The notes beneath the pieces were generated by a model. It ran no database searches. It had not been told where the DNA came from and was given only the letters and a program-made list of their open reading frames with translations. The position numbers and the translations under genes were made by a program. Positions 11,142 to 55,927 of a DNA stretch of 64,000 bases are shown piece by piece (within the stretch, counting starts at the first letter, position 1; each line of letters opens with the position of its first letter). Source of the stretch: a virus; the IMG/VR virus record IMGVR_UViG_3300045988_122441. The stretch is one strand, 5' to 3'.

Positions 11142-11213
11142 AGGGGTATAGCCAAGCGGTAAGGCACAGGAATTTGACTCCTGCATTCGTCGGTTCAAAT
11201 CCGACTACCTCTG
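11142..11213 (+). tRNA. tRNA-Gln (anticodon UUG)
   Basis: Hand-folded 72-nt cloverleaf. Acceptor AGGGGTA/TACCTCT (one G-T pair). Anticodon stem CAGGA/TCCTG with loop ATTTGAC. T arm GTCGG-TTCAAAT-CCGAC. No encoded CCA. Confidence 0.85.
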
Positions 11214-39815: not shown

Positions 39816-42800
39816 TTACCTGCCCCCTAAGTACCTAAATGACAGGTTGCCATTAGAACGGGGAATAAAAGCAAATTTGCCAAGCTGTAATCGTTCTAAG
39901 ATTTCAGCATCAGTTACATATAGCTTATTGTTACTGAAGTATGCTACTTCGTCAGTACCCTGATAGAAGCTCAGTTTCTGTTCGCTTAACAGCATAGACA
40001 GCTGCTTAGAGACATCCTGACTTGATATCTTTCTCGTGATACGCAAACCAGCATCTTCCATTGAGAAACACTCTGTTGTCTTCTCAATATCAACAATTTT
40101 GCCATTGATAGCATCGACCTGCACAATGTATGTGTTGATATCGGTTTGTACCCTATCAACTTGCTGTTGTGTAGTTACGCTGCTTTTACGAATTTCTTCG
40201 ATACGTCCATCTTCACCCACCAAATCATCAAAGTCTTTACGATTGATGGTTACCTGGTTCAGAACGTCAGAAATAATTTCTCTTAACTCATCAGATATAT
40301 CGCCAAGGTTTTTGTCTGTATAATTCAACAAATCCTCTGGGGCAGGATAATAGTCTGTAGGACGGTTTCCTTTCTCTAACTGAATGTAGTCAATAGCGTA
40401 GTAATCATTTCCATTCATATTGTCAGTGATACGCAGGACGTTGGAAAGATTTCCAACATTTCCAGTCGTCAATAGCTGACCAGACGATGTTGCAAAATTG
40501 TAACGTGCGTCAGTAACTAGCTCGAATTCTGTATCCTCAAGCGTCAGAACTGTATATACCTTGTTCCATCCAGAAGACAACTGTATTTGCTGCATGTCTG
40601 TTGTCTGCATAACGCCATTGGCATTTGCAAGGCATACGTTAATAGTTGTATTCTGGCGGGAGTATACATTCATTGATACCGTGAGTTTAGTACCAATGGA
40701 GGCAGAAATTAGATTATCTGTGTATACTTCATAGTAAACAGCCTTAGCTGTATTAGATCCGGTTCCGGACTGAATCTTAATTACTTTTTTGGCTTCAATC
40801 TCATCTTCAGTGATGCTATAAACACCATCGCTGCCATAATAATGACATCCTTCAAGCGCATCAGATTTCTTGAGCAAGTTTCTTGCACCAATCATCATAT
40901 TTGCGCTATCTACCAGAATAGGAATAGTTTGGATATCGAGCAGGTTATTATCATTTGGAGCTTGACTGGCTTTATGCATTTCTACTGTATAGAACGTAGG
41001 CATATCAGCCTCTCCATAGATTGTGAATGACTGCTCGGCAACATTACCAGAAGAACTAAATACCTCTTCTGTTCGGTTGTCACTATATGTCTTTGTAATG
41101 ACAAAACGGCAAGGGTAGACCTCGCGATCACCATTGCCATCTCTGTAATATCCTCTAACTTTAACCGTATCCGGTGTGATGATGTTGTTTCCATCAATCT
41201 TAACTGCGGATGTATCAACTTCAAGGAAATATGTTCTTCCTGTCACTCCGGTATCACCCTGTTTTGCATTTGTATACGTCACAGTTGAATTACCGTCTGA
41301 ATAGTTGACAGTAGTTCTTGTCCAGAGAATCATACCGTCTGAAAGTTCTGGCATCTCATCTGACCATTTGTTTGTAACAAATATTCTCGAAGAATTGTCA
41401 ACCAGTGATAATCCACCGCTAGTGATAAGCTCGACTGATTCTGGCGGGGTAGTGCTTTTCTCGGTTGTTGCGATATATTCTATTTTTGTAGAGGTAATTG
41501 TAACATCAGCACCCTTGATAAGAGACCATGTGTACTTCGTAGGGTCTGTACTATCAGCCTCAATATTATCTGTGTACTGTCCGATATATTTTTTATCAGT
41601 ACCAACAGTCGTGTTGAATCCGGTTTTTCCATCAGCTGAGTCTGCGTAAGCTATATGAACATAGCCATTCTCACCCGGCGTACCATTTTCACCGACGTAC
41701 TTAGACCACTTATACGCACTTGCGGCTGTTGGTGCGGTAGAAGTGGTTGTAGATGTAGTACCGATATATTTTGTTGCGCTTGAAGGTGTTGTGGTCATTC
41801 CGCTACCATTTGCATCAGTAGCATATCTTATCCAGAGATAAGAGGATACACCGTCAAAGTAATCGACTCCTTTAACAGGCGTTTTACCATCAGCACCCTT
41901 GATAAGAGACCATGCATAATCTTTGTAGTTTCCGCTATCAGCCTGTACATTATCAGAGTACACACCAATATATGTTGCTCCGGTAAACTCGGATTTAGAG
42001 AATCCCTCTTTACCATCAGCACTCATAGCGTATGCGAAATGCACATAGCCGTTCTTGCCTGGAATACCGTCCTCGCCGTCTTTTCCTGCAAACTTAGACC
42101 ATGTATAGGAGTTTGCCGTGTCAGGGTCTTTGATGACATCATTCACGCAGATACCAATGTAGTCTGAAGGAACTTCTGATATCTGGCTATCTGTAGGATT
42201 TGGATATGCGGAATATTTGATATGAACATAATTGCTTGAACCATCACGTCCATCACGTCCATTGATTCCGTCGATTCCATCCGTACCATCGATACCCTGT
42301 CTTGACACGCTATATGTTACCGTAGAATTTCCATCTGAGTAATTGACCGTAGTTCTCGTCCACAGATATGATCCTTCAATAACATTCGGAACTGTTGTGA
42401 GCCACTTATTTGTAGCCAGCTCGTTTCCATTATGGTCTACAATGATTTTTCCATCATTTGTCGCCATTGAGTTTGCGGATGGTGGGATAGTACCGCTGTC
42501 GCTCGGAATATACACAACCTCCGTGGAAACGATATACACACTTGTACCATCTTCTCCACGAATTTGTGACCAAGCATATTTTTTGTAGTCTGTACTATCT
42601 TCTTTCACATTGTCGGTATAAACACCGATATGTGTAGCTCCTTCGTATTCGACTACACTGAAGTTCACACTACCATCTGCTGACTGAGCGTACGCAAAAT
42701 GCACATAACTATCTGCACCTGCTGTACCGTCCTTACCGTCTTTACCAGTAAATTTACTCCATGTATAAGAGCTTGCTGTTGTTGGGTCGTTCACGTTTTC

Positions 42801-45800
42801 ATCGACGCAGATACCGATATATGTAGATGGAACTTCGGTCATTAATTCATCTGTTGGATTTGCGACCGGGCTGTATTTGATATGAATGTAGGATGATTTA
42901 CCGTCTACGCCATCACGTCCCGGAAGACCTTGACCGCCATCAGCACCGGCTTTCAGTTTTGCAATTCGGAATTTCTTGCTGACAGATAACTTGTCCATAT
43001 AGATTAAATCAAATACGACCTCACCAACACTTGTGGTTAAGTTCTTGATCGTGTATCTATGGTTTGTCTTGTCCCATTCACCTACAATCCCACTTGTGGC
43101 AGTGATTGTCCACTTCAGGTCAGATGATTTTGTGATATCCGTACTTCCAGAGAATACAAGCACATCTGTATAGCAATCAGTGAAATTGCCTCCGTTGCCA
43201 TTAGAGTCGGTAGTGATACCGATGTATTCATTTGTAAGCTGTACCACGAGAGCAGCAGCTTCTTGCTTGATGGTCTTGTCAATATAAGAGCCAAGGTCAT
43301 CGCTGGTTGTCATTTGGATATGTCTACCGTTGATTTTGATATTTCCATCATCATCCACATACACATATTTTGTGTAAGAACCATCTTTGTTCTTACGCTG
43401 AAGTGTAAATAGATCCTTGTTCGTATCAGAAGCATCGGCAGTAATCGTCATACCATTCTGGTCAATCTTCACAGAGCCTGATGTATTGTAAATACCAAGC
43501 TCATTTCCAAGAATGATATTACCGACAATCTTATGTGCGATAATACCGTAGTCTTCTTTATATGTACCTGTCTCCGGGTCATAGTAAATATACTTACCAA
43601 GACCTGTTTTAACAGTTTTCCACCCATCGTTTGTGTAATAAAATCCATGATTGATAATCTTTGTCTGTTCTGCACTATAGTCGTCTCCGAATTCGTTCTT
43701 TTCTCTCATCAGGAGACCGGATTCATCAACAACCATATTCTGATTATCTGCAGCATTTACGATTCTTTTATTCGTAAGGTTCAGACCGTTCTCAACCATG
43801 TCCATAATCTGCTTATTCGCATTATTTCCCTTATTAGCCTGATGCTGTACCATAGAGTATGATGTAGCCATAGATTGAGCCTGAGCCAGAATACTCTGTG
43901 TATCTGACATATAGTCCAGTCCATATGTGACATCTGAAAACTCTACATCGAGCTTATCAAGATTGTCGTAATCAATCTTATAAGAAGTCAGTCGAAGCTT
44001 ATATACCACTCCGTCAATTTCGATGTGAACCCAGTTACCGACCTCGAAATTAACAAGAAGAGGAGAGAATGTTGCGTTGCCTTTTACAAGATAAAGCTGA
44101 TCGTGAGTAATAATATGGACTCCATCCAACGTGACGATTGGAACCGGAGATTCTTCCACATCCTGCTCTTTAACCAGAAGGAAGTTGTTAAGGTTGCAAC
44201 TGATTGTATGCTGTAATGTTGCAGATTTTACGATTTCACGTTCGGCGTTTTTGATAAATTCTTTTGCCTGAGCAATCAGTTCTGTGTCTGATAACCCATC
44301 AGAAATGAAATTGTCATTCTGGTATGTATCATCACGTCTGAAAGAACAGAACTCTACCCATAAAGTTTCCCCAAGGTAGCTTCGGAGATCAAGCTTGTTG
44401 GCAATAGCCTGACGCTGTTTCTCAATGTAATCCAGTACGCCATCTGGATTACTTCTTGTACCTCTAAGTTTCAGAACCTCTGCCTCACGTTCTCTTAATT
44501 CATCCTGAATCCATACGCTTCTGTTGTAGTACGGTAAATACATAGATGCATACAATTCATTTTCAGGGTCAGCTACTCCCTGTTGAATTAAGATATCCAG
44601 ACATCCACGAGCAATGCTCGCAAGGATATTGAGGTTATCCACGCTATAGAATGACAGTGCCTGTTTGAACTCGGACTCGCTCTTCTTAAACAGAGCAACA
44701 GTTCCTGTAGCATCTACATCATTCTTTTTCATAGCCTTCTCAATCTGACATTTGATGAAGTCCGGTGTTGCGTCAGAAACGTATACGGTCAATACTGCAG
44801 ATGTTGCCGTATCCTCTTCATCTGAATATCCAGTAAGAGTGACGGTTCCCTTCCACACCTTCGCTTCGTATGTGTTACACTTCGCTGTGATTCTATACAA
44901 AGAAGTATCAATAAATACCTTCGCATAATTCTGTACAGCAGATGTAACAGTAGCAGAAGATGAGATCTCTGCATTCTGAATGCCAAGAGGAGATAAAGTA
45001 TTTGTGGTGAGCTTTGCAAGCTCTTTTGCGGCAGTTGTCTTCTCACCATGCTCCGATGCTGGAGCCAGAGTGGTCTTTAATAAGCTATAGAAATTCAATG
45101 CAGAATAATATACATCTGTCAACGCAGAGTATCCTACGATTGGATATTTTACATTTGTCAGAGTATCATCATACAGCTTGTATTTATTGATAAGAGCGTT
45201 ATACTCAGAAATTACAGTAGATGGAATATCTATCTGTTTTTTAGTTGAGTACGACTCATATTCTGTGTCATAAGCTTTCAGCTTATCCTGTAAAGCCTGT
45301 GACATATCCGCACGAACAGAATCACTCAAATACCAAATATACTGACTGCCACTAGGATTGATATTACGAATCGTCGCAGTCATCAAATCATCGCCAGCAA
45401 CGAGGCGGAAACAGTTTTTTACACTGTCCTTATTTGATGAATAGGTAATATCTCCGGCGAAATTCTCGTGACTGAGAAAAATGCCGCTGTCAGTGCCATA
45501 TCCGTAATTGATATTCGCAGAGCCACACTTCGGGCATACCTTTGTAGTGAATGAGCCACGTTCGCCACATTCCATACATCGGTCATTCAGATCATATACA
45601 GAAATAGTTCTATGAATTTTGCCATCGTTATTCGTATATTCGCCATATTTAAAAAGGCATTCTACTTCATTTGCGATGTCATCAAATGCATCTTTTATAC
45701 TCGAGCCGTCCCATGAAAATGTTCGTTGTAGATTTGCAATAGATGAATCTACATGTACAATAGTATAATGAGATGCTTTGTCTTTTAAAATTCTGTCCAG

Positions 45801-46265
45801 AGCAGATGCCTCTGGATTCTTTGGGTCATAGATAATCGTAGGAGAGTAGTCGTCTCTCGCAATATCATCTTCTGTGTTAATTTCAACACCATTCAATGTA
45901 AGCTGACCAAGCTCTGCTTCCTGTAAATGAATTCCTTGACAATGTTTGATTGTACAGTCATTCTCATCAACTTCTACAGAAAGCTCATACCACGGATTGA
46001 ACGTAGACGTATCAAGATGTGGTATATACACCAGTCTGAAATCCCTGATATCATCCCATAACTGGCATTCAACACCATCGATCTCCTTATAAACATCAAA
46101 GGATATCTCAGCAGTTTCTACAAGTGCATTTGCATTCGTCAGTGATTGGACATTGTGAATAATTCCTTGTTTGGTTCCGCCACGATAAGAAAGAACGAGA
46201 TCTGGTGTAATTGGCTGACCGTCAGGACTTATTTCAATAAGACCTCCATATAAAGAAGTATTCAC
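39816..46265 (-). CDS. Giant tail-associated lysin-position protein (Tal) fused to receptor-binding modules, 2149 aa
   Basis: The N-terminus resembles prophage-tail (Tal) proteins and follows Dit. It contains an internal zinc ribbon 'CMECG..CPKCG'. Tandem ~100-aa modules ('YVHFAYA.SADG', 'YIGICV...SYTWSKF.GKDG') are present. Short GXY runs and a CBM-like domain lie before a C-terminal coiled coil. Confidence 0.75.
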   Translation of the reverse strand: MNTSLYGGLIEISPDGQPITPDLVLSYRGGTKQGIIHNVQSLTNANALVETAEISFDVYKEIDGVECQLWDDIRDFRLVYIPHLDTSTFNPWYELSVEVDENDCTIKHCQGIHLQEAELGQLTLNGVEINTEDDIARDDYSPTIIYDPKNPEASALDRILKDKASHYTIVHVDSSIANLQRTFSWDGSSIKDAFDDIANEVECLFKYGEYTNNDGKIHRTISVYDLNDRCMECGERGSFTTKVCPKCGSANINYGYGTDSGIFLSHENFAGDITYSSNKDSVKNCFRLVAGDDLMTATIRNINPSGSQYIWYLSDSVRADMSQALQDKLKAYDTEYESYSTKKQIDIPSTVISEYNALINKYKLYDDTLTNVKYPIVGYSALTDVYYSALNFYSLLKTTLAPASEHGEKTTAAKELAKLTTNTLSPLGIQNAEISSSATVTSAVQNYAKVFIDTSLYRITAKCNTYEAKVWKGTVTLTGYSDEEDTATSAVLTVYVSDATPDFIKCQIEKAMKKNDVDATGTVALFKKSESEFKQALSFYSVDNLNILASIARGCLDILIQQGVADPENELYASMYLPYYNRSVWIQDELREREAEVLKLRGTRSNPDGVLDYIEKQRQAIANKLDLRSYLGETLWVEFCSFRRDDTYQNDNFISDGLSDTELIAQAKEFIKNAEREIVKSATLQHTISCNLNNFLLVKEQDVEESPVPIVTLDGVHIITHDQLYLVKGNATFSPLLVNFEVGNWVHIEIDGVVYKLRLTSYKIDYDNLDKLDVEFSDVTYGLDYMSDTQSILAQAQSMATSYSMVQHQANKGNNANKQIMDMVENGLNLTNKRIVNAADNQNMVVDESGLLMREKNEFGDDYSAEQTKIINHGFYYTNDGWKTVKTGLGKYIYYDPETGTYKEDYGIIAHKIVGNIILGNELGIYNTSGSVKIDQNGMTITADASDTNKDLFTLQRKNKDGSYTKYVYVDDDGNIKINGRHIQMTTSDDLGSYIDKTIKQEAAALVVQLTNEYIGITTDSNGNGGNFTDCYTDVLVFSGSTDITKSSDLKWTITATSGIVGEWDKTNHRYTIKNLTTSVGEVVFDLIYMDKLSVSKKFRIAKLKAGADGGQGLPGRDGVDGKSSYIHIKYSPVANPTDELMTEVPSTYIGICVDENVNDPTTASSYTWSKFTGKDGKDGTAGADSYVHFAYAQSADGSVNFSVVEYEGATHIGVYTDNVKEDSTDYKKYAWSQIRGEDGTSVYIVSTEVVYIPSDSGTIPPSANSMATNDGKIIVDHNGNELATNKWLTTVPNVIEGSYLWTRTTVNYSDGNSTVTYSVSRQGIDGTDGIDGINGRDGRDGSSNYVHIKYSAYPNPTDSQISEVPSDYIGICVNDVIKDPDTANSYTWSKFAGKDGEDGIPGKNGYVHFAYAMSADGKEGFSKSEFTGATYIGVYSDNVQADSGNYKDYAWSLIKGADGKTPVKGVDYFDGVSSYLWIRYATDANGSGMTTTPSSATKYIGTTSTTTSTAPTAASAYKWSKYVGENGTPGENGYVHIAYADSADGKTGFNTTVGTDKKYIGQYTDNIEADSTDPTKYTWSLIKGADVTITSTKIEYIATTEKSTTPPESVELITSGGLSLVDNSSRIFVTNKWSDEMPELSDGMILWTRTTVNYSDGNSTVTYTNAKQGDTGVTGRTYFLEVDTSAVKIDGNNIITPDTVKVRGYYRDGNGDREVYPCRFVITKTYSDNRTEEVFSSSGNVAEQSFTIYGEADMPTFYTVEMHKASQAPNDNNLLDIQTIPILVDSANMMIGARNLLKKSDALEGCHYYGSDGVYSITEDEIEAKKVIKIQSGTGSNTAKAVYYEVYTDNLISASIGTKLTVSMNVYSRQNTTINVCLANANGVMQTTDMQQIQLSSGWNKVYTVLTLEDTEFELVTDARYNFATSSGQLLTTGNVGNLSNVLRITDNMNGNDYYAIDYIQLEKGNRPTDYYPAPEDLLNYTDKNLGDISDELREIISDVLNQVTINRKDFDDLVGEDGRIEEIRKSSVTTQQQVDRVQTDINTYIVQVDAINGKIVDIEKTTECFSMEDAGLRITRKISSQDVSKQLSMLLSEQKLSFYQGTDEVAYFSNNKLYVTDAEILERLQLGKFAFIPRSNGNLSFRYLGGR

Positions 46266-47436: not shown

Positions 47437-50400
47437 CTACCACTGATATTTATTTTTCGAGAGCTTACTGCCACCAGATAACTGGTCAACAGTCATGGAA
47501 CGAATCATCTTTTCAAATTTTCCGTCCTTACGCATCTGGTTCATAAAATCGTTGTAGTCTTGTACATGTTCTATCGGAATTGTTACCTGATAGGTGATGT
47601 CTCCGATATTTGTTGTATCTTTTCCGGATATAGGCGCACTTACCTTAGCAAGCTGTGATAATACATTTGCAGCGCCCTCATCTCCTCCAAACAACTTGCT
47701 CAAAGGATTATTTCCATCAGCAATGCTTCTCATAGCATCTTTCAATGCAATGAAGTTCTGTGTGTCCTCTGGGTTTAGAACCATTTCTGGCTCTGTAGGA
47801 GAACCGTCAAGCCAAGCTACTCCGGTATAGTCGGCAAGACCACCTTTCTTGAATGCGCTGTAGTAATACTGGGATAATTTGCTCTTTCCGGTCTTTACCC
47901 AGTAATTGTACAGATCACCATTGTTTGCATGAGCATTAATGTATTTCTGTACGGCAGCCGCATTAGAAGCACCAAACTTTGCTGTCAACCGCTTCTTTCT
48001 GTCAGGGTCATTTCCCCATCCAGACTTAGAGCCGTAAATCCAGATAGCTGCGGCAACACCACGTTTCACGTCCTCATTGAATTTTGGTTTCGTAGAGGTA
48101 GTCGTAGGTGTTTTTGGCGTGCTAGTAGATGTAGGCGGCTTCGCAGAAGTGTCTGTTTTGGTAGATGGAGTTGCAGAAGACACTGTCTTGTTAGCCTGAT
48201 TATCGCTTTCTTTGACCATAGCACCAATTTTGTATGCTATTTTTGTAATCACATCATTGACTGATGTAAGTTGTGTCAAGAAAGACTCTCCGTACTTTGT
48301 GATGATAGAGTATCCGCCACCCTCATTTGACCAAATGGACTTCATGGCAGCAGATAAATCATATCCAACTTTGTCGCTCTGTGTCTGTAACGTAGTGCTA
48401 ATTGTTGCAGAGTTGGCATTGATTGTATCAATCATGTCAGAAATCAAAGCATCGATATTATCAAGACGTTCATTCAGAATTGCCTCGTACTCATCATACA
48501 GATTATCAAGGAGCTTTTTCTGCTCACTGATATAGTGCTCATACTGCGTCTCCTCAAGGTCGTCCATAGCGTCAGCCAGGTCAACCTGAATCTTTTGTAT
48601 GGTAGCTCTAGTCTCTTCTGAATTATCACCGGAATATGCAGATAACTGTTTCTGCAGTTTAGCAATCTCTGATGACTGTTTTTCAATATCTTTCTGATAA
48701 TCATGTAGGTCTTTGGCGGTATCCATTGCCTCAGTGTATTTGTCAATCAAATCCTGTAAGGCATCAAGTTCTTTTTCGATACCATTAGCCACGAGGTCTT
48801 TAATTGCTTGCTTTTCATCCTCAGCCGCAATGATTGAATCACGCTGTGCCTCCAGTAATTCCTGGCGATGCTGTAACAGCGTTGTATTGTTTGGGTCTTT
48901 TGCAATCTCTGCATTTAACTTCTTCAATTCTTCTGCATACTTATCAGCCTGAGCCATGTATACATTGTAGTTTTGACCACGAAGACCTAGTGTTGCCATA
49001 CCAGTATCGGTAAATTTACCGTTATCAGTAAACAAATCAGTGTTCTCCATTAAGTCAATCATAAAGTTGGCTTCATCAGTAATATTACTGATCTGCTCTT
49101 GCAGATACTCAAACCGTTCCCACTTGATTTCTCGTATCGAATTATTGAATTCGATGACAGCGGTTTCAGACTTCTGAATAGATTCTTTTACCGAATTGAT
49201 ATCGTTCTGCATGTCATACCATGCTTCACTGCCTTCTTTGATTTCTCCAGAATTTACAGCTTCTGACATTGCTTTTGTGAGAGAAGCAAGTTCCTTCTTC
49301 TGAATAGCAATATTCTGTTTTTCAACATTTCGCATAGCTTCATAGAATTTGGTACTTGCAAGATATCCGCGAGCTTCAAGGTTATCAATACCGTTGTCAT
49401 AGGTATTAGTCAGATGCTCCAACAGACTAAGTTGATTCTCAAAATCGTTTGAGAGATTATCAAATCTATCTTTATATAGGCTGGCAATTTCTTCATGCAA
49501 TTCTGCGACGGCATCTTTTGCTTTAATTGCTTTCTCATAGAAATCTTGATAATCCTTAATCTTATCAGCAAGGTCTTCGTCTGTGACGGTTGTGATATCA
49601 ATAGAACCATTCTGAATCTTTTTGACCCAAGATTGATCCAGACCAAGCGAGTTGGCTTTCGCCATATATCCCTCGTATGCCTTGTTTTCTACATCAATCT
49701 TCTTTGTAATAGCTGCCATTTCTTTGACGGTAGCTTTATTACGGGTGCTAAGAGTTTGGAATGCACTGTCGGCTGTTATCTTTAGCCGATCAATAGCCTC
49801 TGTAGCTCTATCGACAGCTATGGCAATAAGGTCAAATACTTCTTCAAATTCTTTTTCTTTGGTAGATGTAGAATTTGATTTTGATTTTGAACTTCCGCTA
49901 GACCTTGTCCTGGAACCGCCGGATGATTTAGAACCACTTGAACTCTTCTTAGAAGAAGATGGTTTTCTGCTTGTAGAAGAGGCACTCGGTTTATATGGCT
50001 TATAACCACCAGTGACCATTGCAGTACCGCTTACAAGGGCAGAAGCTCGTCCGGCAACATAGCCATTCTCCAACAGACTTTCTGTTTGTCTATGGTTGAA
50101 TACAATAGCTCCAGCAGGTATATCTCTGAATTCAGCACCGTTGTCGCCAACTGTATACCACTTGCCTGTGCGTGGGTCTACGACGATTTCTCGTCCAAGT
50201 TCTCCAACAAGTGTACGTCCTCCTGGGGCAGTTCCCCAGTCGCCGCCCACTCTTGCAGTACCGCCCGCATGAGCAGTACCATTAACACTGACATCTCCAG
50301 TCTTCACGTAATTTACATATCTTGTGATAGTGCTAAATGAACCTGGAAGATTTGCTGTATCCGCAACATAATTAACTGTTCTGTTAATAGATGGGAAAGA

Positions 50401-53154
50401 GGTTGGCAATAAATCCGTCTTAGGGTCATAGATCACGTCGCATGTCTTAGACTCTGGATTGTACCCATCAATAGCGGAGGCATCTACTTTTGCCTGAACA
50501 TTAATTGTTTCTGCCGATAAATTTGCGATTGATGTCTGAATAGATTCTACGGACGTAGAGTCTATATTCAACTTCGCTTTAATATCTGGCGAAAGATTCT
50601 GAATTTCAGAAGCGAGAGAGTTTACCTGAGATTCAGCCTCGCTAGTGTCAGCACCTACTTTCTGCTTGATTTCCAGATCATTTGTGGCATTCTGGAATTG
50701 CTGCAGAAGTGAGATTGCGTTGCTGACTTCGCCCTCAACCTGAGAAGCATCGACACGCATAACATCAGGCTGTGAAAGGAGCTGCTTCTGTGTAAGGCAA
50801 TACTGAATAACAGCGTTGGCATTGTCAATGCTCGAAGCATCGACATCCGGTCTAGCTTTAATGCTATCCATCTCAGCAATCGTTGCATCGAGGGCATTGA
50901 TCTGTTCCTCTGTTGTAGAAAGATCAGATACATCCATCTTAATTTTCAGATCGCTGTTGCCGTCTAACTGTCGTAACGATTCAGCAGCTTCATTGGCTTC
51001 TACAGCTAAATCACCTACTGTTTTAACTGCTTCGTCTCCCCAGTCAAATTCAGCACCTTTCAACTGTAATTCATCGAAAAATGCCTGGACAACACCAGAA
51101 GATAAGTTCAGTCCCTCTGCGAAGTCCTCCATCTTCTTGCCACCGAGGACTTTAAATCCGTCATCTTCGCTATATGACATCAGTCCGGCATCAACAGATT
51201 TCTGAAGGAATTTATCAATATCAAGACCGTCAACAACTCCGTCGTCATCGAATCTCAGATACTGTTTGAAGTCCGACATATAGGACTCAATAGCACCGAG
51301 ATCTTCACGATCAACAGAATCTGGTACGATGAAATCTACGGCAGCTTCAAATTTCTTTGAACCAAAGTTCCCATAGATATCAGAGTTCGCATCGTATGTA
51401 TCACGAATTTGCTGTATAGCACTAACAGTATCATTCGCCATATCTCCATAATCAGAAGCACTCTGTGCATTTAACCAATGCTGGTAAGCACCAACAGCTT
51501 CCTGAATAGAAGCGGAGAGTAAGTCGTACTGAGCACATGTATCAGCAATAGCACTGTTTTCATCCAGTAAGGCATCTATTGAAGCCTGTATGCTGTCGGC
51601 TGTTTCGCCTTCTGCAAAACTTGCATCCCGTAACTGCTGACGATATTGTTCAATCTGTCGTGCGTTCTCAAGATATTGAGATTGTGCCAGTGCCTTGTTT
51701 GTGTTGTTGATAGCAACCTGTTCGTCTGCTTTGGCTTTAGCAATTTCTGCTACTTTATCCGCATTTAACTGCATTGTGCCATTGACATACTCAAGAGCAC
51801 TTCGATAATCTGCGAGTTCATCAGAATTGAAATCTTCTACGGATATAGACTTTCCGGTCATCTGACCGTTTAATACAGACTGTACTGCATCAATCTGAGA
51901 TGTCAGCTCCTGCGTTGCTTTAGTTGTATCGTCTACGGCATTCTGAATTCTTTCTGCATTGGATACGACAGCCTCGCCCGCATCGTCCGTAGCTTCTGCA
52001 CTGGAATTGATAAGATCTACGAAGTCGCTGATTGATAATCCGGCACCTTCAATGGCAGAAGCGAGTTCAGGATATTTTTCCTTTACATCGTCAACCGATA
52101 TACCAGCTCCGTCAGTAGCCTTTGCTAATTCTGTGAGTTCATCCTTAGCCTTCTTGTATTCATCGCTATTTAATATTTCATTAAATTGCATCTGTTTCCA
52201 AGCAGTAGGGTCTAATTCTGAGTAGATATAGGCAATCTGGTCATCAATCTGACTTAACACATCTGAAGCGCCGTCAACCTTTGCAAGTTCTTCTTCGGGG
52301 AGAGCTTTAAGCGTGTCTCTATATTCTGTAAGAAGTTTTACCTGATCCCAGATAGAATCTGTTAAATCCTGATTCAGATCGTCGTAATGTTGGATGTCTT
52401 CTTCCAACCATTTGATATCATTCTCATTTCCATCCTTCTGTGCTTTTGCAAGCTCATCCTTAGCTTCTTGCTTCAAAGCATCGAACTGTTTTATAGCTGC
52501 AAGCATAGAAGAAACATCAGTCGGCTCGACAGTAAGACCAGCATTATTCCCCGTCATCTGAGCATAATCTTGACGCTCTTTGGTTTGACTTGCACTGATT
52601 TCATTTTTGAAATTCTTTTTATATGCTGAAACAGTATCTTCAGCAGCTTGTCTGGCTGCTTTATTTTCTTCTCTTTCAGCTAAGTCCTGCTGAATTAACA
52701 GCTGTTCAGTAGCATCTTTGAGCTTCTGGAGTTCTGCCTCCTCCACAAATGTAAGATGTTCTTTACCAAGCAGCTCATCCATAGAAGCCTTTGTTGTGTC
52801 TAATTCTGAGTTGACACTTTCGAGATTAGACTGAGCTTCTTGATAAGCACTGTATGAATCACGCATCTTATCATTAGCTTCTGATGCAGATACATATGCC
52901 TTTGATATTGCGTAAATACCTGCGGCAACGGCAGCCGCAATAGCGACAATCGGTACAAGTGTTCCGGATAACGCAGCAGCTCCAGCAGATAATGTTCCGA
53001 ATACGCCAGCTCCACTCGAAGCGGCTGCAGCCATCTTTGCAATCGCATCTCCTACACTACCGAAAGATAACTGTAGCGCCACGAATACATCTGATAAAGA
53101 CTTTATTCCTCCGATGTCTTTAGTAACAGACAATAGACATGTCGGGTATTTCAT
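47437..53154 (-). CDS. Tail tape measure protein, C-terminal 1905-aa portion (probable 3' exon)
   Basis: Long coiled coils. The hydrophobic 'AAAASSGAGVFGTLSAGAAALSG' segment is typical of TMP mid-regions. 'GGDWGTAPGGRTLVGELGREIVV' is present. No purine-rich SD lies before the first ATG. Confidence 0.75.
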   Translation of the reverse strand: MKYPTCLLSVTKDIGGIKSLSDVFVALQLSFGSVGDAIAKMAAAASSGAGVFGTLSAGAAALSGTLVPIVAIAAAVAAGIYAISKAYVSASEANDKMRDSYSAYQEAQSNLESVNSELDTTKASMDELLGKEHLTFVEEAELQKLKDATEQLLIQQDLAEREENKAARQAAEDTVSAYKKNFKNEISASQTKERQDYAQMTGNNAGLTVEPTDVSSMLAAIKQFDALKQEAKDELAKAQKDGNENDIKWLEEDIQHYDDLNQDLTDSIWDQVKLLTEYRDTLKALPEEELAKVDGASDVLSQIDDQIAYIYSELDPTAWKQMQFNEILNSDEYKKAKDELTELAKATDGAGISVDDVKEKYPELASAIEGAGLSISDFVDLINSSAEATDDAGEAVVSNAERIQNAVDDTTKATQELTSQIDAVQSVLNGQMTGKSISVEDFNSDELADYRSALEYVNGTMQLNADKVAEIAKAKADEQVAINNTNKALAQSQYLENARQIEQYRQQLRDASFAEGETADSIQASIDALLDENSAIADTCAQYDLLSASIQEAVGAYQHWLNAQSASDYGDMANDTVSAIQQIRDTYDANSDIYGNFGSKKFEAAVDFIVPDSVDREDLGAIESYMSDFKQYLRFDDDGVVDGLDIDKFLQKSVDAGLMSYSEDDGFKVLGGKKMEDFAEGLNLSSGVVQAFFDELQLKGAEFDWGDEAVKTVGDLAVEANEAAESLRQLDGNSDLKIKMDVSDLSTTEEQINALDATIAEMDSIKARPDVDASSIDNANAVIQYCLTQKQLLSQPDVMRVDASQVEGEVSNAISLLQQFQNATNDLEIKQKVGADTSEAESQVNSLASEIQNLSPDIKAKLNIDSTSVESIQTSIANLSAETINVQAKVDASAIDGYNPESKTCDVIYDPKTDLLPTSFPSINRTVNYVADTANLPGSFSTITRYVNYVKTGDVSVNGTAHAGGTARVGGDWGTAPGGRTLVGELGREIVVDPRTGKWYTVGDNGAEFRDIPAGAIVFNHRQTESLLENGYVAGRASALVSGTAMVTGGYKPYKPSASSTSRKPSSSKKSSSGSKSSGGSRTRSSGSSKSKSNSTSTKEKEFEEVFDLIAIAVDRATEAIDRLKITADSAFQTLSTRNKATVKEMAAITKKIDVENKAYEGYMAKANSLGLDQSWVKKIQNGSIDITTVTDEDLADKIKDYQDFYEKAIKAKDAVAELHEEIASLYKDRFDNLSNDFENQLSLLEHLTNTYDNGIDNLEARGYLASTKFYEAMRNVEKQNIAIQKKELASLTKAMSEAVNSGEIKEGSEAWYDMQNDINSVKESIQKSETAVIEFNNSIREIKWERFEYLQEQISNITDEANFMIDLMENTDLFTDNGKFTDTGMATLGLRGQNYNVYMAQADKYAEELKKLNAEIAKDPNNTTLLQHRQELLEAQRDSIIAAEDEKQAIKDLVANGIEKELDALQDLIDKYTEAMDTAKDLHDYQKDIEKQSSEIAKLQKQLSAYSGDNSEETRATIQKIQVDLADAMDDLEETQYEHYISEQKKLLDNLYDEYEAILNERLDNIDALISDMIDTINANSATISTTLQTQSDKVGYDLSAAMKSIWSNEGGGYSIITKYGESFLTQLTSVNDVITKIAYKIGAMVKESDNQANKTVSSATPSTKTDTSAKPPTSTSTPKTPTTTSTKPKFNEDVKRGVAAAIWIYGSKSGWGNDPDRKKRLTAKFGASNAAAVQKYINAHANNGDLYNYWVKTGKSKLSQYYYSAFKKGGLADYTGVAWLDGSPTEPEMVLNPEDTQNFIALKDAMRSIADGNNPLSKLFGGDEGAANVLSQLAKVSAPISGKDTTNIGDITYQVTIPIEHVQDYNDFMNQMRKDGKFEKMIRSMTVDQLSGGSKLSKNKYQW

Positions 53155-53172
53155 GGTAAAATTGAATAAAAT

Positions 53173-54133
53173 CTATGGGAGGTATATTTATGGCTTTGAT
53201 AAAATGTCCCGAGTGCGGACAAGATGTGTCTGATAAAGCAATACAATGCATCCATTGTGGATATCCTTTAAATATCCAGAAAGATAGTGCTTATGATATT
53301 ATCTATAATGGATTTGAAAATAATTCATTAAAATACAAGTATCAAGCAAATCTGATAGGATGTATAAGACAACTGCTGAAATTAGATTTAACAACTGCGA
53401 AAATGATTATTGACAACCCACCATATACTCTTTTCCATTCTGTATCAAAAGAACAGGCAGAATGGATTATTACAACATTAAAACCGTTTCAATGCAATGT
53501 TACTGCAAACGAATCTAATAGCGATATTCAGTCAAATATTGAAATTGATTCTTATATGGCAAACGGATCAACATTGATATGCCCGCATTGTGGTTCTAAT
53601 GAAGTTATAACAGGTCAAAGAGGCTTTTCATTATTAACCGGATTTATAGGCAGTAATAAAACCATCAATAGATGTGGAAAATGCGGATATAAATGGGAAC
53701 CGTAATTTATGTCTTCTTATCGACGCTGACATATGCGTACCATGATTAGAGTGAGAGATAAGTTCTCACTACACGAGGACTATACATTAAAAGTCGCTAC
53801 ACTAGGCAGTAGCGGCTCAAAGGGTGGGTAGTCTCTGAGGATGAAGCTGTGAGTCTTCGTCCGGCTGATGTCATCCTATCTGCAGAAATATCTGCGTAGC
53901 ACTTAGGCTTACTATCACCATATGCCATCCAATCATTTGTTTCTGCCTTTCGCAACGTTCACGCTTATTGTTTCCAATTACGTTGTAGTATGATTGGTTT
54001 AACCAGTTTCCCAGCAATTACCCCTTTGTGTGATTTGTTTTAAAACGCTCACCCATAGCCTTGGCTCATATCTCCAAAATTGATATGTCCTTGACCATGC
54101 CGACCTCTGTTACAGATAACCCATGATTTTGGG
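53173..54133 (-). ncRNA. Putative group I intron interrupting the tape-measure gene (boundaries approximate)
   Basis: All elements below read on the minus strand. P-like UAAUUGCUGGGAAAC (54006-54020). P3 CAAAGGG (54022-54028) pairs with CCCUUUG (53818-53824). R-like UCAGAGACUAC (53828-53838). P8 hairpin (53796-53813). S-like AAUGUAUAGUCC (53777-53788). P9 hairpin (53750-53770). Two GAAA tetraloop hairpins lie in the P5 region. Confidence 0.6.
53190..53705 (+). CDS. Zinc-ribbon / ribosomal L7-L12 C-terminal-domain-like / zinc-ribbon protein
   Basis: 'CPECGQ..CIHCG' and 'CPHCGS...CGKCG' flank 'LIGCIRQLLKLDLTTAKMIIDNPPYTLFHSVSKEQAEWIITTLK' (cf. L12 CTD 'IKvVRe.tGLGLKEAKdLVe.aP..lkegvsKeeAe.lk..Le'). 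GGGAGG lies 7 nt before the ATG at 53190. Opposite strand to all neighbours. Confidence 0.6.
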   Translation: MALIKCPECGQDVSDKAIQCIHCGYPLNIQKDSAYDIIYNGFENNSLKYKYQANLIGCIRQLLKLDLTTAKMIIDNPPYTLFHSVSKEQAEWIITTLKPFQCNVTANESNSDIQSNIEIDSYMANGSTLICPHCGSNEVITGQRGFSLLTGFIGSNKTINRCGKCGYKWEP

Positions 54134-55927
54134 TCAAGCCACGTTCTTGATAATTTTGGCTATTCCTAATCCTACAAGAATGGTCTTTAATGAACCAAAC
54201 GTGCTGATTACTTTATCAATAGCCTCTACAATACCTCTAAGAGCATCGACAGCTCCTTTTGTAAAGTCTGAGTCGAAAACGTCAGAAGAGAGTTCCTGAA
54301 ATGCAGCTTTCAGCTCTCCAACTTTTGCCTTAGTGGTATCCATGTAAATATTGTTTGCTTCTGTTGCAGTTCCAGCAGAATCCATAGCACTTGCATAAGC
54401 ACCGATAGCATCCTTGATATTAGTGATTGTAGACATAATACCTGATGTATTACGTGTACCACCAAGAATTTCTGCAACACGAGACTGGGATACATCTTCC
54501 ATGTTGTCCCAAACTTCTGCAAGCTGTACGAAGATGTCATACATATCCTTATATGTGTTTTCATCTTTCATGATGTCAACGCCGGATAATGCCATGATTT
54601 CTTCTCTATACTTAGACAGACCCTGAGCTAATCCGTCTGTCTCTTCACCCATTTCCTCAAGCTCTGTTGTAGCCCCTCGGATACGAGCACTTACTGTTTT
54701 CCACATTGTACCTGTGGTTTCAGCATTCTGAAGGGATGCGTTTGTTGCGGCGAACAAAGCAGCACTCTTCTCGAAGTCAGTTCCAGAAGCATGGAGTGCA
54801 GCACCACCTCGCTGAAACGCAGCCATAAGTTCCTCGGCTGAGATAGCGTATTCCTGACCTACCTTTACGAGCACATCTGATACGTGTTCTGCATCACTTG
54901 CATCCATTTCGTATCCCTTTATGATAGAAGTAATACCAGTTGTAGCAGTGTCCACGTCAGTGTTACCGACATTTGCCATGATATTTGCATATTTAGCCAA
55001 ATTCGATGAATCGCTCATGTTGTATCCGAGTCGAGCAAATGTTTCGATAGATGATGCTACATCAGTTACACTCTGACCAAGCTCTTTTGCAAGAGAGATG
55101 GACTTCGTAAGAAACGCTTCCATTTGAGAATCAGAGGCTCCAGTTACAATCTGGATCTGAGCCATAGCACTTTCGACTTCAACAGCAGCAGAGACCATCT
55201 GTTTTACAGTTCTAATCGCATACATGATTGCCTGTGAAACCGTCAACCATGAAGAGAATTTTGAAGCCAGACCGGATATTCTGTCACCAAATGACTGTGT
55301 ATTTTCTCCAGCTGTTCTGATAGCAGTTGATGCATCAGTTACAGTTGCTTTAATAGAGGCAAAACGCTCTTTGAACTGTTCAGCCGAAACAGATCCATTC
55401 ATTAACCCTGTTTTTAACGCTTCTAATGCAGTGATCTGGTCTTTAAGCGCAGAATAGCTTGTACTGGTATTACCGTTTCTTGCCGCAGTCCATTTCTGAG
55501 TATTTACAGTTACCTGTCCAAGAAGATTGTTTACTTTGGTCAAAGCATCTGTATGTTTCTTTGTGCCGACTGCAAAAGCATTTTCACTCGCTGCAGCCTG
55601 TTTTGTAGCATCGGCGGCTTTCCTTGTAGCATTGGCATTAGCATTTTTTGCCTGTGTGTTGGCATTGATAGCTGCGGTATCTTTTACCCATATTCCTGAA
55701 TTGGTCTTTGTGTATCCACCTGCTAACTTTGCCGCATTTGCGCTCGATGCAGCCTTAGTCATAGATTCAATCTGCTGTCTCATAGAAGACAGGGACGAAT
55801 CATCAAATTTAAGTTTTATTTTCGGTGGATTAGCATTGACCTGAGAAACCAGACTGGTAATTCCCGCCTGAAATTCAGCATAGCTCAACGAAGTATCCAC
55901 GCCGACTGTCAGTAAAATGTCAGCCAT
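54134..55927 (-). CDS. Tail tape measure protein, N-terminal 597-aa portion (TP901-type core; probable 5' exon)
   Basis: 'ELMAAFQRGGAALHASGTDFEKSAALFAATNASLQNAETTGTMWKTVSARIRG' fits the TP901-family TMP core pattern. Ends in a hydrophobic 'TILVGLGIAKII'. Confidence 0.75.
   Translation of the reverse strand: MADILLTVGVDTSLSYAEFQAGITSLVSQVNANPPKIKLKFDDSSLSSMRQQIESMTKAASSANAAKLAGGYTKTNSGIWVKDTAAINANTQAKNANANATRKAADATKQAAASENAFAVGTKKHTDALTKVNNLLGQVTVNTQKWTAARNGNTSTSYSALKDQITALEALKTGLMNGSVSAEQFKERFASIKATVTDASTAIRTAGENTQSFGDRISGLASKFSSWLTVSQAIMYAIRTVKQMVSAAVEVESAMAQIQIVTGASDSQMEAFLTKSISLAKELGQSVTDVASSIETFARLGYNMSDSSNLAKYANIMANVGNTDVDTATTGITSIIKGYEMDASDAEHVSDVLVKVGQEYAISAEELMAAFQRGGAALHASGTDFEKSAALFAATNASLQNAETTGTMWKTVSARIRGATTELEEMGEETDGLAQGLSKYREEIMALSGVDIMKDENTYKDMYDIFVQLAEVWDNMEDVSQSRVAEILGGTRNTSGIMSTITNIKDAIGAYASAMDSAGTATEANNIYMDTTKAKVGELKAAFQELSSDVFDSDFTKGAVDALRGIVEAIDKVISTFGSLKTILVGLGIAKIIKNVA

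Follow-up and report, generated by a model that had tools for sequence, protein, structure and literature searches.

The 64,000-nt viral DNA stretch IMGVR_UViG_3300045988_122441, whose full length is called the window here, raises the question of whether its tape-measure protein is encoded by two separate genes or by a single gene that is interrupted by an intron. Two tape-measure-like open reading frames (ORFs) lie about 1 kb apart on the minus strand, as a first-pass annotation of this DNA had described. The first, at 54134..55927, encodes 597 amino acids (aa) and carries a TP901-type tape-measure domain (Pfam PF10145, PhageMin_Tail, E=6.6e-26), and the second, downstream of it at 47437..53154, encodes 1905 aa. 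Two peculiarities that had been pointed out in the downstream ORF were confirmed in the sequence: no ribosome-binding site precedes its first ATG, and its reading frame stays open upstream of that ATG as far as a TAG at 53173-53175. We consider it highly probable that the locus as a whole is best explained by a single tape-measure gene with a self-splicing group I intron (54136..53131) and a unit that runs antisense within this intron. The two ORFs were accordingly assigned as exons of one gene, and the features of this gene are as follows.

54137..55927, minus strand: exon 1 of the tape-measure gene, 597 codons, ending ...KNVA, last base U54137
53131..54136, minus strand: predicted group I intron, 1,006 nt, placed by covariation, the conserved terminal G and the P1/P10 pairings
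47437..53130, minus strand: exon 2 of the tape-measure gene, with first residues SVTKDIGG... and 1,897 codons before the stop
After U54137 (between GCU and UGA), minus strand: 5' splice site, marked by P1 with an invariant U·G pair
After terminal G 53131 (between UUG and UCU), minus strand: 3' splice site, marked by P10 and the conserved G

Neither splice site interrupts a codon, and the reading frame runs on through the spliced junction, so that 597 and 1,897 residues add up to 2,494, in agreement with the earlier estimate of about 2500 aa. The predicted junction would join ...IIKNVA to SVTKDIGG... in the protein, and ...AAGAACGUGGCU to UCUGUUACUAAAGAC... in the RNA. The first codon of the intron is UGA (54136-54134), an in-frame stop directly after exon 1. 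Gut metagenomes contain hundreds of close homologues of the exon 1 protein, and in 120 of the 120 homologues listed the protein ends at the same terminal residue (...KNVA or equivalent). On the other side of the gap, protein similarity among relatives starts exactly at S53130, with the motif S-x-x-K-x-x-G (S-x-[IL/T]-K), and not at ATG 53154. This ATG has no Shine-Dalgarno (SD) sequence. Because it lies inside the 3' strand of the intron helix P9.1 and some relatives, L001 and L008 among them (loci of relatives bear L numbers), lack it, ATG 53154 is, as far as sequence comparison can tell, an intron-internal triplet and no genuine start, and MKYPTCLL is no genuine N-terminus. A distant homologue without the interruption, P0132, aligns through the exon junction, and P0135 is another uninterrupted distant homologue. 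The gap with its antisense ORF was found in every relative context that was fetched.

Ribozyme structure and splice sites

The first-pass annotation had claimed a group I core in the correct order (P3, R, P8, S, P7, P9 and GAAA loops), and these elements were all found at the positions given below. The canonical order P3-P4-P5-P6-P7-P3'-P8-P7' is present, with the P3/P7 pseudoknot and the P, Q, R and S elements. The ribozyme takes up about the first 400 nt of the intron, and the remainder is the loop of P9.1.

54101..54141, minus strand: P1, exon UGGCU 54141-54137 paired with guide GGUCG 54105-54101, wobble U54137·G54105
54135-54118, minus strand: P1a hairpin GACCCA/UGGGUU, within the P1 span
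54106..54113, minus strand: P10 5' strand GUAACAGA, pairing with the first 8 bases of exon 2, UCUGUUAC, at 53130-53123
53750..54099, minus strand: ribozyme core and peripheral helices, with compensatory changes
54099-54054, minus strand: P2, compensatory changes in 13 pairs
54052-54030, minus strand: P2.1
54027-54022 and 53824-53819, minus strand: P3 AAAGGG/CCCUUU, compensatory changes in 4 pairs
54015-54011 and 53868-53864, minus strand: P4, invariant, with J3/4-P4 reading UAAUUGCUGGGAAAC
53997-53882, minus strand: branched P5 extension with two GAAA loops and the 11-nt tetraloop receptor UAUGG/CCUAAG, its helices showing compensations
53858-53843, minus strand: P6, compensatory changes in 3 pairs
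53833-53829 and 53782-53778, minus strand: P7 GACUA/UAGUC, with R element UCAGAGACUAC, compensations in 2 pairs
53818-53791, minus strand: P8, compensatory changes in 6 pairs, core hairpin quoted as 53814-53795
53770-53750, minus strand: P9, compensatory changes in 2 pairs
53745-53738 and 53158-53151, minus strand: P9.1, a long-range helix UCAUGGUA/UACCAUGA with three covarying pairs, whose loop holds the antisense gene

The combined R...S pattern occurred once in the 64-kb window and in 0 of 100 shuffles. The intron is no typical IA intron, because only three bases (CCA) lie between P7 (end 53829) and the 3' strand of P3 (start 53824), and the helices P7.1 and P7.2 are absent. Two other foldings were rejected. 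A helix GGAUGA/UCAUCC around P4' and P6 is broken in L001 and L005, and a nested alternative proposed by RNAalifold for the P4/P7 bases gave way to the pseudoknotted core, whose P6 and P7 show compensatory changes.

A profile of the ribozyme segment found diverged copies (L076/L112, L032, L240-242, L245/246, L293, L320 and L324), which occupy the same site in other tape-measure genes, and a near-identical ribozyme lies on a contig of an uncultured Ruminococcus metagenome-assembled genome (MAG). In 8 close copies, 98.6% of cells were paired and 15 pairs had changed on both sides, compared with 6.6±1.6 two-sided changes in shuffles, 0 of 500 of which reached the observed number, and 0-3 with slid partners. 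In 11 diverged copies, 93.5% of cells were paired and two-sided changes were seen in 54 of 100 pairs, compared with 26.3±3.1 in shuffles (again 0 of 500 reached the observed number) and 11-16 with slid partners. The compensations in the diverged copies were located in P1, P2, P3, the P5 helices, P6, P7, P8 and P9. In P9.1, CAUGGUA/UACCAUG was replaced by UGUGGUA/UACCACA and by UAUGGUA/UACCAUA. The ribozyme was the most conserved segment of the locus, and when the gap of six loci was aligned, its first ~430 nt stood well above the coding flanks in conservation. Identity to other phages was 88-92% in the ribozyme, 62-86% in exon 1, 53-61% in exon 2 and 36-63% in the ORF-bearing loop.

The splice sites had been left unfixed by the first-pass annotation, which had seen no clean U-G pair at the exon border. 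Such a pair was found here, U54137·G54105, invariant in 11 of 11 copies, and both sites could be fixed. The two P1 pairs beside it change on both sides (GC in 5 copies, AU in 4 and UG in 2; GU in 4, GC in 3, UA in 3 and AU in 1), and the P1 variants UAUCU/GGAUA, UAGCU/GGCUA, UUGCU/GGCG and UAGGU/GCCUA track the exon sequence. P10 showed three covarying pairs among close copies, and in divergent copies its strands are different yet complementary, UCCACAAUU/AAUUGUGGG in L245 and UCUGCUAU/AUAGCAGA in L241, with a further complementary replacement, UCUACUAU/AUAGUAGA, among relatives. The length of P10 is 5-10 bp, and it is rebuilt with other sequences in L001, L005, L241, L245, L032 and L330. Both P1 and P10 track the exon sequences in L241, L245, L032, L112, L320, L324 and L330. 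Because the base preceding the P10 partner is G in all copies examined, G53131 was identified as the terminal G of the intron.

Other guides and sites were tried and rejected. The guide GAGCCA at 54066-54061 showed apparent co-variation with the exon in L008, which is compensated within P2 (pair 62-87), and its splice site would be out of frame; the guide GGCUAU at 54060-54055 is the P2 3' strand. Alternative 3' splice sites after TAG 53173, ATG 53152 and GUCU 53138 had no support from P10 or conservation, and GUCU would in addition break the frame. An automatic search for the best combination of P1 and P10 served as a cross-check only; it returned spurious distant sites in 5 of 28 loci, the window included, where such a site tied with the true one.

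From these pairings and the comparison of copies, the element is very probably a functional group I intron with the splice sites given above. During late transcription the intron would fold, and the guide GGUCG would pair with UGGCU at the end of exon 1, so that the U·G wobble comes to lie at the splice site. The cut after U54137 would be made by an external guanosine. The guide-adjacent GUAACAGA would then pair with the start of exon 2, UCUGUUAC, to form P10, the terminal G 53131 would enter the guanosine site in P7, and the exons would be joined to give the 2,494-aa tape-measure protein.

The antisense unit in the P9.1 loop

The loop of P9.1 holds a gene on the opposite strand, with the following features.

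53134..53162, plus strand: predicted promoter of the antisense gene, TAGACA, 17-nt spacer, TG-n-TAAAAT
53177-53182, plus strand: ribosome-binding site GGGAGG, preceding the cargo ORF
53190..53705 (open from 53175), plus strand: antisense cargo gene, 171 aa, encoding a zinc ribbon, a domain like the bL12 C-terminal domain (CTD) and a second zinc ribbon

This ORF had been described as SD-equipped and free of LAGLIDADG, GIY-YIG and HNH motifs, and the domain and fold searches bore this out, finding zinc ribbons and a bL12-CTD/ClpS-like domain only. No nuclease domain was found in Pfam, NCBIfam, PHROGs or PADLOC, and fold searches against PDB and viral models returned bL12/ClpS only; a single weak match to an HNH PHROG (E=0.0046) depends on the zinc ribbon. 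In Pfam the protein matched PF13240 and PF13248, with PF00542 just under its cut-off. It belongs to the family phrog_2546 (function unknown in PHROGs) and has at least 1,389 homologues. The eight cysteines of the two zinc ribbons and a Gly-rich insert in the second ribbon are invariant. In an AlphaFold model (predicted local distance difference test score, pLDDT, 84.6), the predicted middle domain (residues ~34-109) superposed on the bL12 CTD structure 1ctf with a template-modelling (TM) score of 0.88, and a profile search of PDB sequences also matched the bL12 CTD (E=2e-9). The N-terminal dimerisation/uL10-binding domain of bL12 is absent, and NCBIfam TIGR00855 scored 16.8 bits against a cut-off of 84.4. 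Because it lacks that domain, the cargo is no ribosomal protein replacement; its function may lie in contacts with those translation GTPases to which bL12 binds.

Strong purifying selection acts on the protein itself: the ratio of nonsynonymous to synonymous substitution rates (dN/dS) is 0.05-0.08 in close pairs, and all copies have an intact ORF. Protein identity falls to 37-57% between phages with ~90% identity in the ribozyme. The antisense ORFs of L001 (6224-6733), L023 and L182 encode an unrelated segment in place of the bL12-like middle domain and retain both ribbons and the Gly-rich insert. A divergence far beyond that of the ribozyme, together with a different middle domain in one lineage, suggests cassette exchange of the cargo gene.

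The predicted promoter is the best promoter-like site in the region, with 10 of 12 matches plus the TG. The bases complementary to the P9.1 3' strand supply its -10 element, and the -35 element is found in the 3' tail of the intron, beside the 3' splice site. Of 15 relatives with a located ORF start, 13 have an equivalent site whose -10 occupies the homologous position, very diverged copies among them. The sites of the relatives score 9-12 on a 13-point scale that gives one point for TG, and -10 elements in diverged relatives include TGGTATAAT, TGGTATGAT and TGTTATAAT.

These results point to the P9.1 loop as an independent transcription unit on the opposite strand, in which a sigma-A-type extended -10 promoter would drive the 171-aa protein. 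In relatives, up to about four further ORFs follow the zinc-ribbon gene, nearly all on the same strand. The intron would let a moron-like accessory module occupy an essential late gene without inactivating it. We favour the view that the antisense unit is an independently expressed accessory module, although with less confidence than we have in the intron, and expression of the cargo, for example in the lysogen, probably does not depend on late transcription.

Counter-evidence and rival explanations

Several results weigh against a single gene with an intron and an independent antisense unit. P4 is invariant, so that covariation gives no test of it, and P5 proper has no confident assignment. 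A pattern search for spliced junctions and intron-less sites in viral and JGI metagenome contigs gave unrelated matches only. No terminator was found in a search after the antisense unit, and a PADLOC defence search of the cargo proteins returned nothing significant. In ~10 loci, an Anaerostipes phage and a MAG element, the gene is free-standing and co-directional with its neighbours. The covariance search proposed in the first-pass annotation also turned out negative: RF00028 (Rfam 15) gave no match at the gathering score, at E<=10 in the 1.5-kb region or at E<=5 in the whole window, and none in the relatives L240-L246.

That annotation had counted the lack of a covariance-model hit among the outcomes that would refute an intron. 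The lack of a hit is real, yet it is uninformative, because RF00028 also misses or under-scores related elements: it gave 20.5 bits for a second intron in the tape-measure gene of L008 and nothing for the related elements of phiIPLA-RODI. We read this as low sensitivity to long P1/P2/P5 insertions and not as evidence against group I membership, and the comparative analysis was used because the covariance-model test was uninformative. The P3-P5 module is 72-80% identical over ~120 nt to elements in many Staphylococcus phages, one of which sits inside an RF00028 match of 36 bits, below the family threshold.

Side observations were made on these elements. Phage PMBT8 (L286:1387-2624) has three tandem group I introns scored by RF00028 and an unscored fourth that shares the P3-P5 module, and phiIPLA-RODI (L285:2463-3258) has two unscored related elements directly after the tail tube gene. 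The second intron of L008 (5147-6001) is a different group I intron, further upstream in the same tape-measure gene, with a ~130-nt insert between P7 and P3'. Exon 1 is in several pieces also in L240 and L245, which indicates that these genes are multiply interrupted.

The rival explanations concern mostly the antisense gene. It is unlikely, in our judgement, that the zinc-ribbon protein is a new intron-associated factor (for DNA targeting, homing or splicing control) and the P9.1 loop a protected landing pad for lysogeny-expressed genes; if true, this would explain why the protein persists with the intron, promoter-adjacent and antisense, through deep divergence. We give little credence to a related idea, in which the intron is genuine and the protein, instead of being passive cargo, serves to mobilise or maintain it, as a homing enzyme, a DNA-targeting factor or a maturase of an undescribed kind. 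The ORF is indeed tied to the intron, in the same place and orientation, as far as the ribozyme can be traced (protein identity down to ~35-40%), and it always lies beside the promoter while other cargo varies. Its strong purifying selection, the frequent binding of nucleic acids by zinc ribbons and the antisense homing-endonuclease genes known from group I introns of nuclear ribosomal DNA (rDNA; PMC9548176) would fit as well. Against this, neither a nuclease motif nor a nuclease fold was found, the middle domain is replaceable, and free-standing members of the family exist elsewhere. Junction-pattern searches found no intron-less sites among close relatives, and the ORF is far more diverged than the ribozyme, which suggests cassette exchange over co-transfer.

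Similarly doubtful is a mainly regulatory role of the antisense unit, in which transcription over the complement of the ribozyme and exon 1 would damp tape-measure expression or splicing in the lysogen and the protein would be secondary. The strong promoter-like site at a conserved position is compatible with such a role, and with no terminator after the ORF, read-through into the ribozyme complement is plausible. The intact ORF in every copy and its low dN/dS indicate instead that the protein itself is selected, and relatives add further protein-coding cargo behind it. Finally, we regard it as very improbable that there are two separate tape-measure-like genes with an inserted moron, exon 2 being read from ATG 53154 and the RNA motifs being a dead intron remnant or chance: gene callers do annotate two genes in all relatives, Rfam gives no match, and unspliced RNA would yield a 597-aa product ending at the conserved stop, but the non-coding 5' part is conserved above the coding flanks, the 54 compensated pairs include those of P1 and P10, which are relevant only to splicing, ATG 53154 lacks an SD, falls within the 3' strand of P9.1 and is missing from relatives such as L001 and L008, protein conservation runs from S53130, and the uninterrupted P0132 aligns through the junction.

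Relatives, known systems and significance

The distribution of the interrupted tape-measure gene and its cargo was examined in a sample of 80 viral-contig loci encoding a relative of the cargo protein. An opposite-strand ribozyme was detectable by sequence in 23 of the 80 loci; 20 of these ribozymes begin at or just beyond the end of the ORF and 3 lie further off. In ~47 loci the ORF is divergent from, and ~30-90 nt away from the 5' end of, a minus-strand frame of >1,000 aa, presumed to be exon 2, and a further 5 loci have a shorter frame there, truncated where the contig stops. L330 has no profile match, and it keeps the P1a hairpin and the P1/P10 logic around a much diverged core. The content of the loop ranges from one ORF, in introns of ~1.0 kb, to about five, nearly all antisense, in introns of 2.4-3.6 kb. 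The extra genes behind the zinc-ribbon gene encode DUF2513, a proteasome-subunit-like protein (PF00227), DUF6173 and unknowns, with no PADLOC match. Loops with several ORFs are located as follows.

L240:3948-6464: multi-ORF loop
L241:3948-7543: multi-ORF loop
L330:3460-6230: multi-ORF loop

When 52231-55036 of the window was compared with L001, L005, L008 and L023, a mosaic boundary was seen at the intron. Exon 1 was 79-86% identical to L001, L005 and L023, exon 2 was 53-61% identical, and the ribozyme between them was 88-92% identical. The conserved ribozyme may serve as a recombination joint between tail-gene modules.

Length variation was also observed in homologues of the protein that sets tail length. 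In P0001 (NCBI, 644 aa), an internal stretch of 47 aa within the PhageMin_Tail region is tandemly duplicated, and P0012/P0069 represent a common 709-aa variant with a 112-aa coiled-coil insertion near the N-terminus. The neighbour genes in relatives belong to Pfam families of the YomU/YomW type, and from this gene content the source is therefore taken to be an SPbeta-like tailed phage or prophage. A near-identity DNA search of a phage collection gave no match. In the window, two small ORFs separate the tape-measure gene from a second giant ORF downstream of it (39816-46265, minus strand, 2,149 aa), and the plus-strand genes of the element include a tRNA gene (11142-11213, plus strand, RF00005, 63 bits).

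Group I introns in tape-measure genes are already known from prophages of the Bacillus cereus group, where TMP-IVS1, TMP-IVS2 and TMP-IVS3 occupy three sites and belong to IA1/IA2 (Tourasse and Kolsto 2008, PMC2504315). Like the intron of the window, they belong to the self-splicing group I type, interrupt the tape-measure gene in temperate Firmicutes phages and have P1 and P10 helices that fit the insertion site. Several can occur in one gene, and some have no complete homing-endonuclease gene and are passively inherited with the phage. By their description, the IA1/IA2 introns carry either no ORF or endonuclease remnants (PMC2504315). The intron of the window differs from them in that it has no P7.1/P7.2 insert and holds, in the loop of P9.1, an antisense non-nuclease gene with its own predicted promoter. 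The Staphylococcus phage elements (Kayvirus and Sextaecvirus; phiIPLA-RODI and PMBT8) share P3-J3/4-P4, the P5 extension, the two GAAA loops and UAUGG/CCUAAG with the intron of the window. They likewise lie in or beside tail genes, and some are likewise missed by RF00028. They differ in the P1, P2 and P9 peripheries and have no antisense cargo, and the ORF adjacent to the phiIPLA-RODI element is on the same strand as the element.

Antisense homing-endonuclease genes have been described in nuclear rDNA group I introns of protists and fungi (PMC9548176). There too, a protein gene lies opposite the ribozyme strand in a peripheral loop of a group I intron. Those genes encode His-Cys box endonucleases in eukaryotic rDNA, and spliceosomal introns aid their expression (PMC9548176), whereas the intron of the window has a protein-coding host gene of a phage, a cargo without a nuclease domain and a predicted bacterial promoter. 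IStrons of Clostridioides difficile are group I introns fused to an IS605-family element (PMC3984707), and they resemble the intron of the window in having a 5' ribozyme and foreign genes in the 3' part, upstream of the 3' splice site, with splicing rendering the insertion harmless. The cargo of an IStron consists of transposases that move the element, whereas in the window there is no transposase; the cargo is a zinc-ribbon/bL12-like gene, with variable genes in relatives, and the element keeps to a fixed site in a single gene family.

Phage proteins with a bL12 domain are known (Mizuno et al. 2019, PMC6375957). As in these, the bL12 domain of the cargo lies inside a larger protein and some homologues are without it, and as in phage morons, the unit has its own predicted promoter among late genes. 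The cargo is unlike both in its two flanking zinc ribbons, the lack of a bL12 N-terminal domain and the location in an intron. A 2014 review of bacterial group I introns makes no mention of antisense ORFs, and the literature searched contained no antisense, promoter-equipped, non-nuclease cargo in a phage group I intron, an absence that is no proof. The first-pass annotation had called an intron in a tape-measure gene with an antisense passenger unusual. This does not hold for the intron itself, as the tape-measure gene is already a known host (PMC2504315), and it holds for the antisense cargo module with its own predicted promoter, which seems new.

For annotation, the finding means that the two 'tape-measure' ORFs seen in many gut metagenome contigs would be one protein of 2,494 aa, with a defined exon boundary that is relevant to tail-length prediction and proteomics. 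It also points to a family of group I introns in gut Firmicutes phages that is invisible to the standard Rfam model. The antisense unit has a predicted promoter that shares its bases with an intron helix and the 3' tail, and its gene content differs between phages. If the unit is expressed in lysogens, a self-splicing intron would be shown to offer accessory genes a safe place within an essential structural gene.

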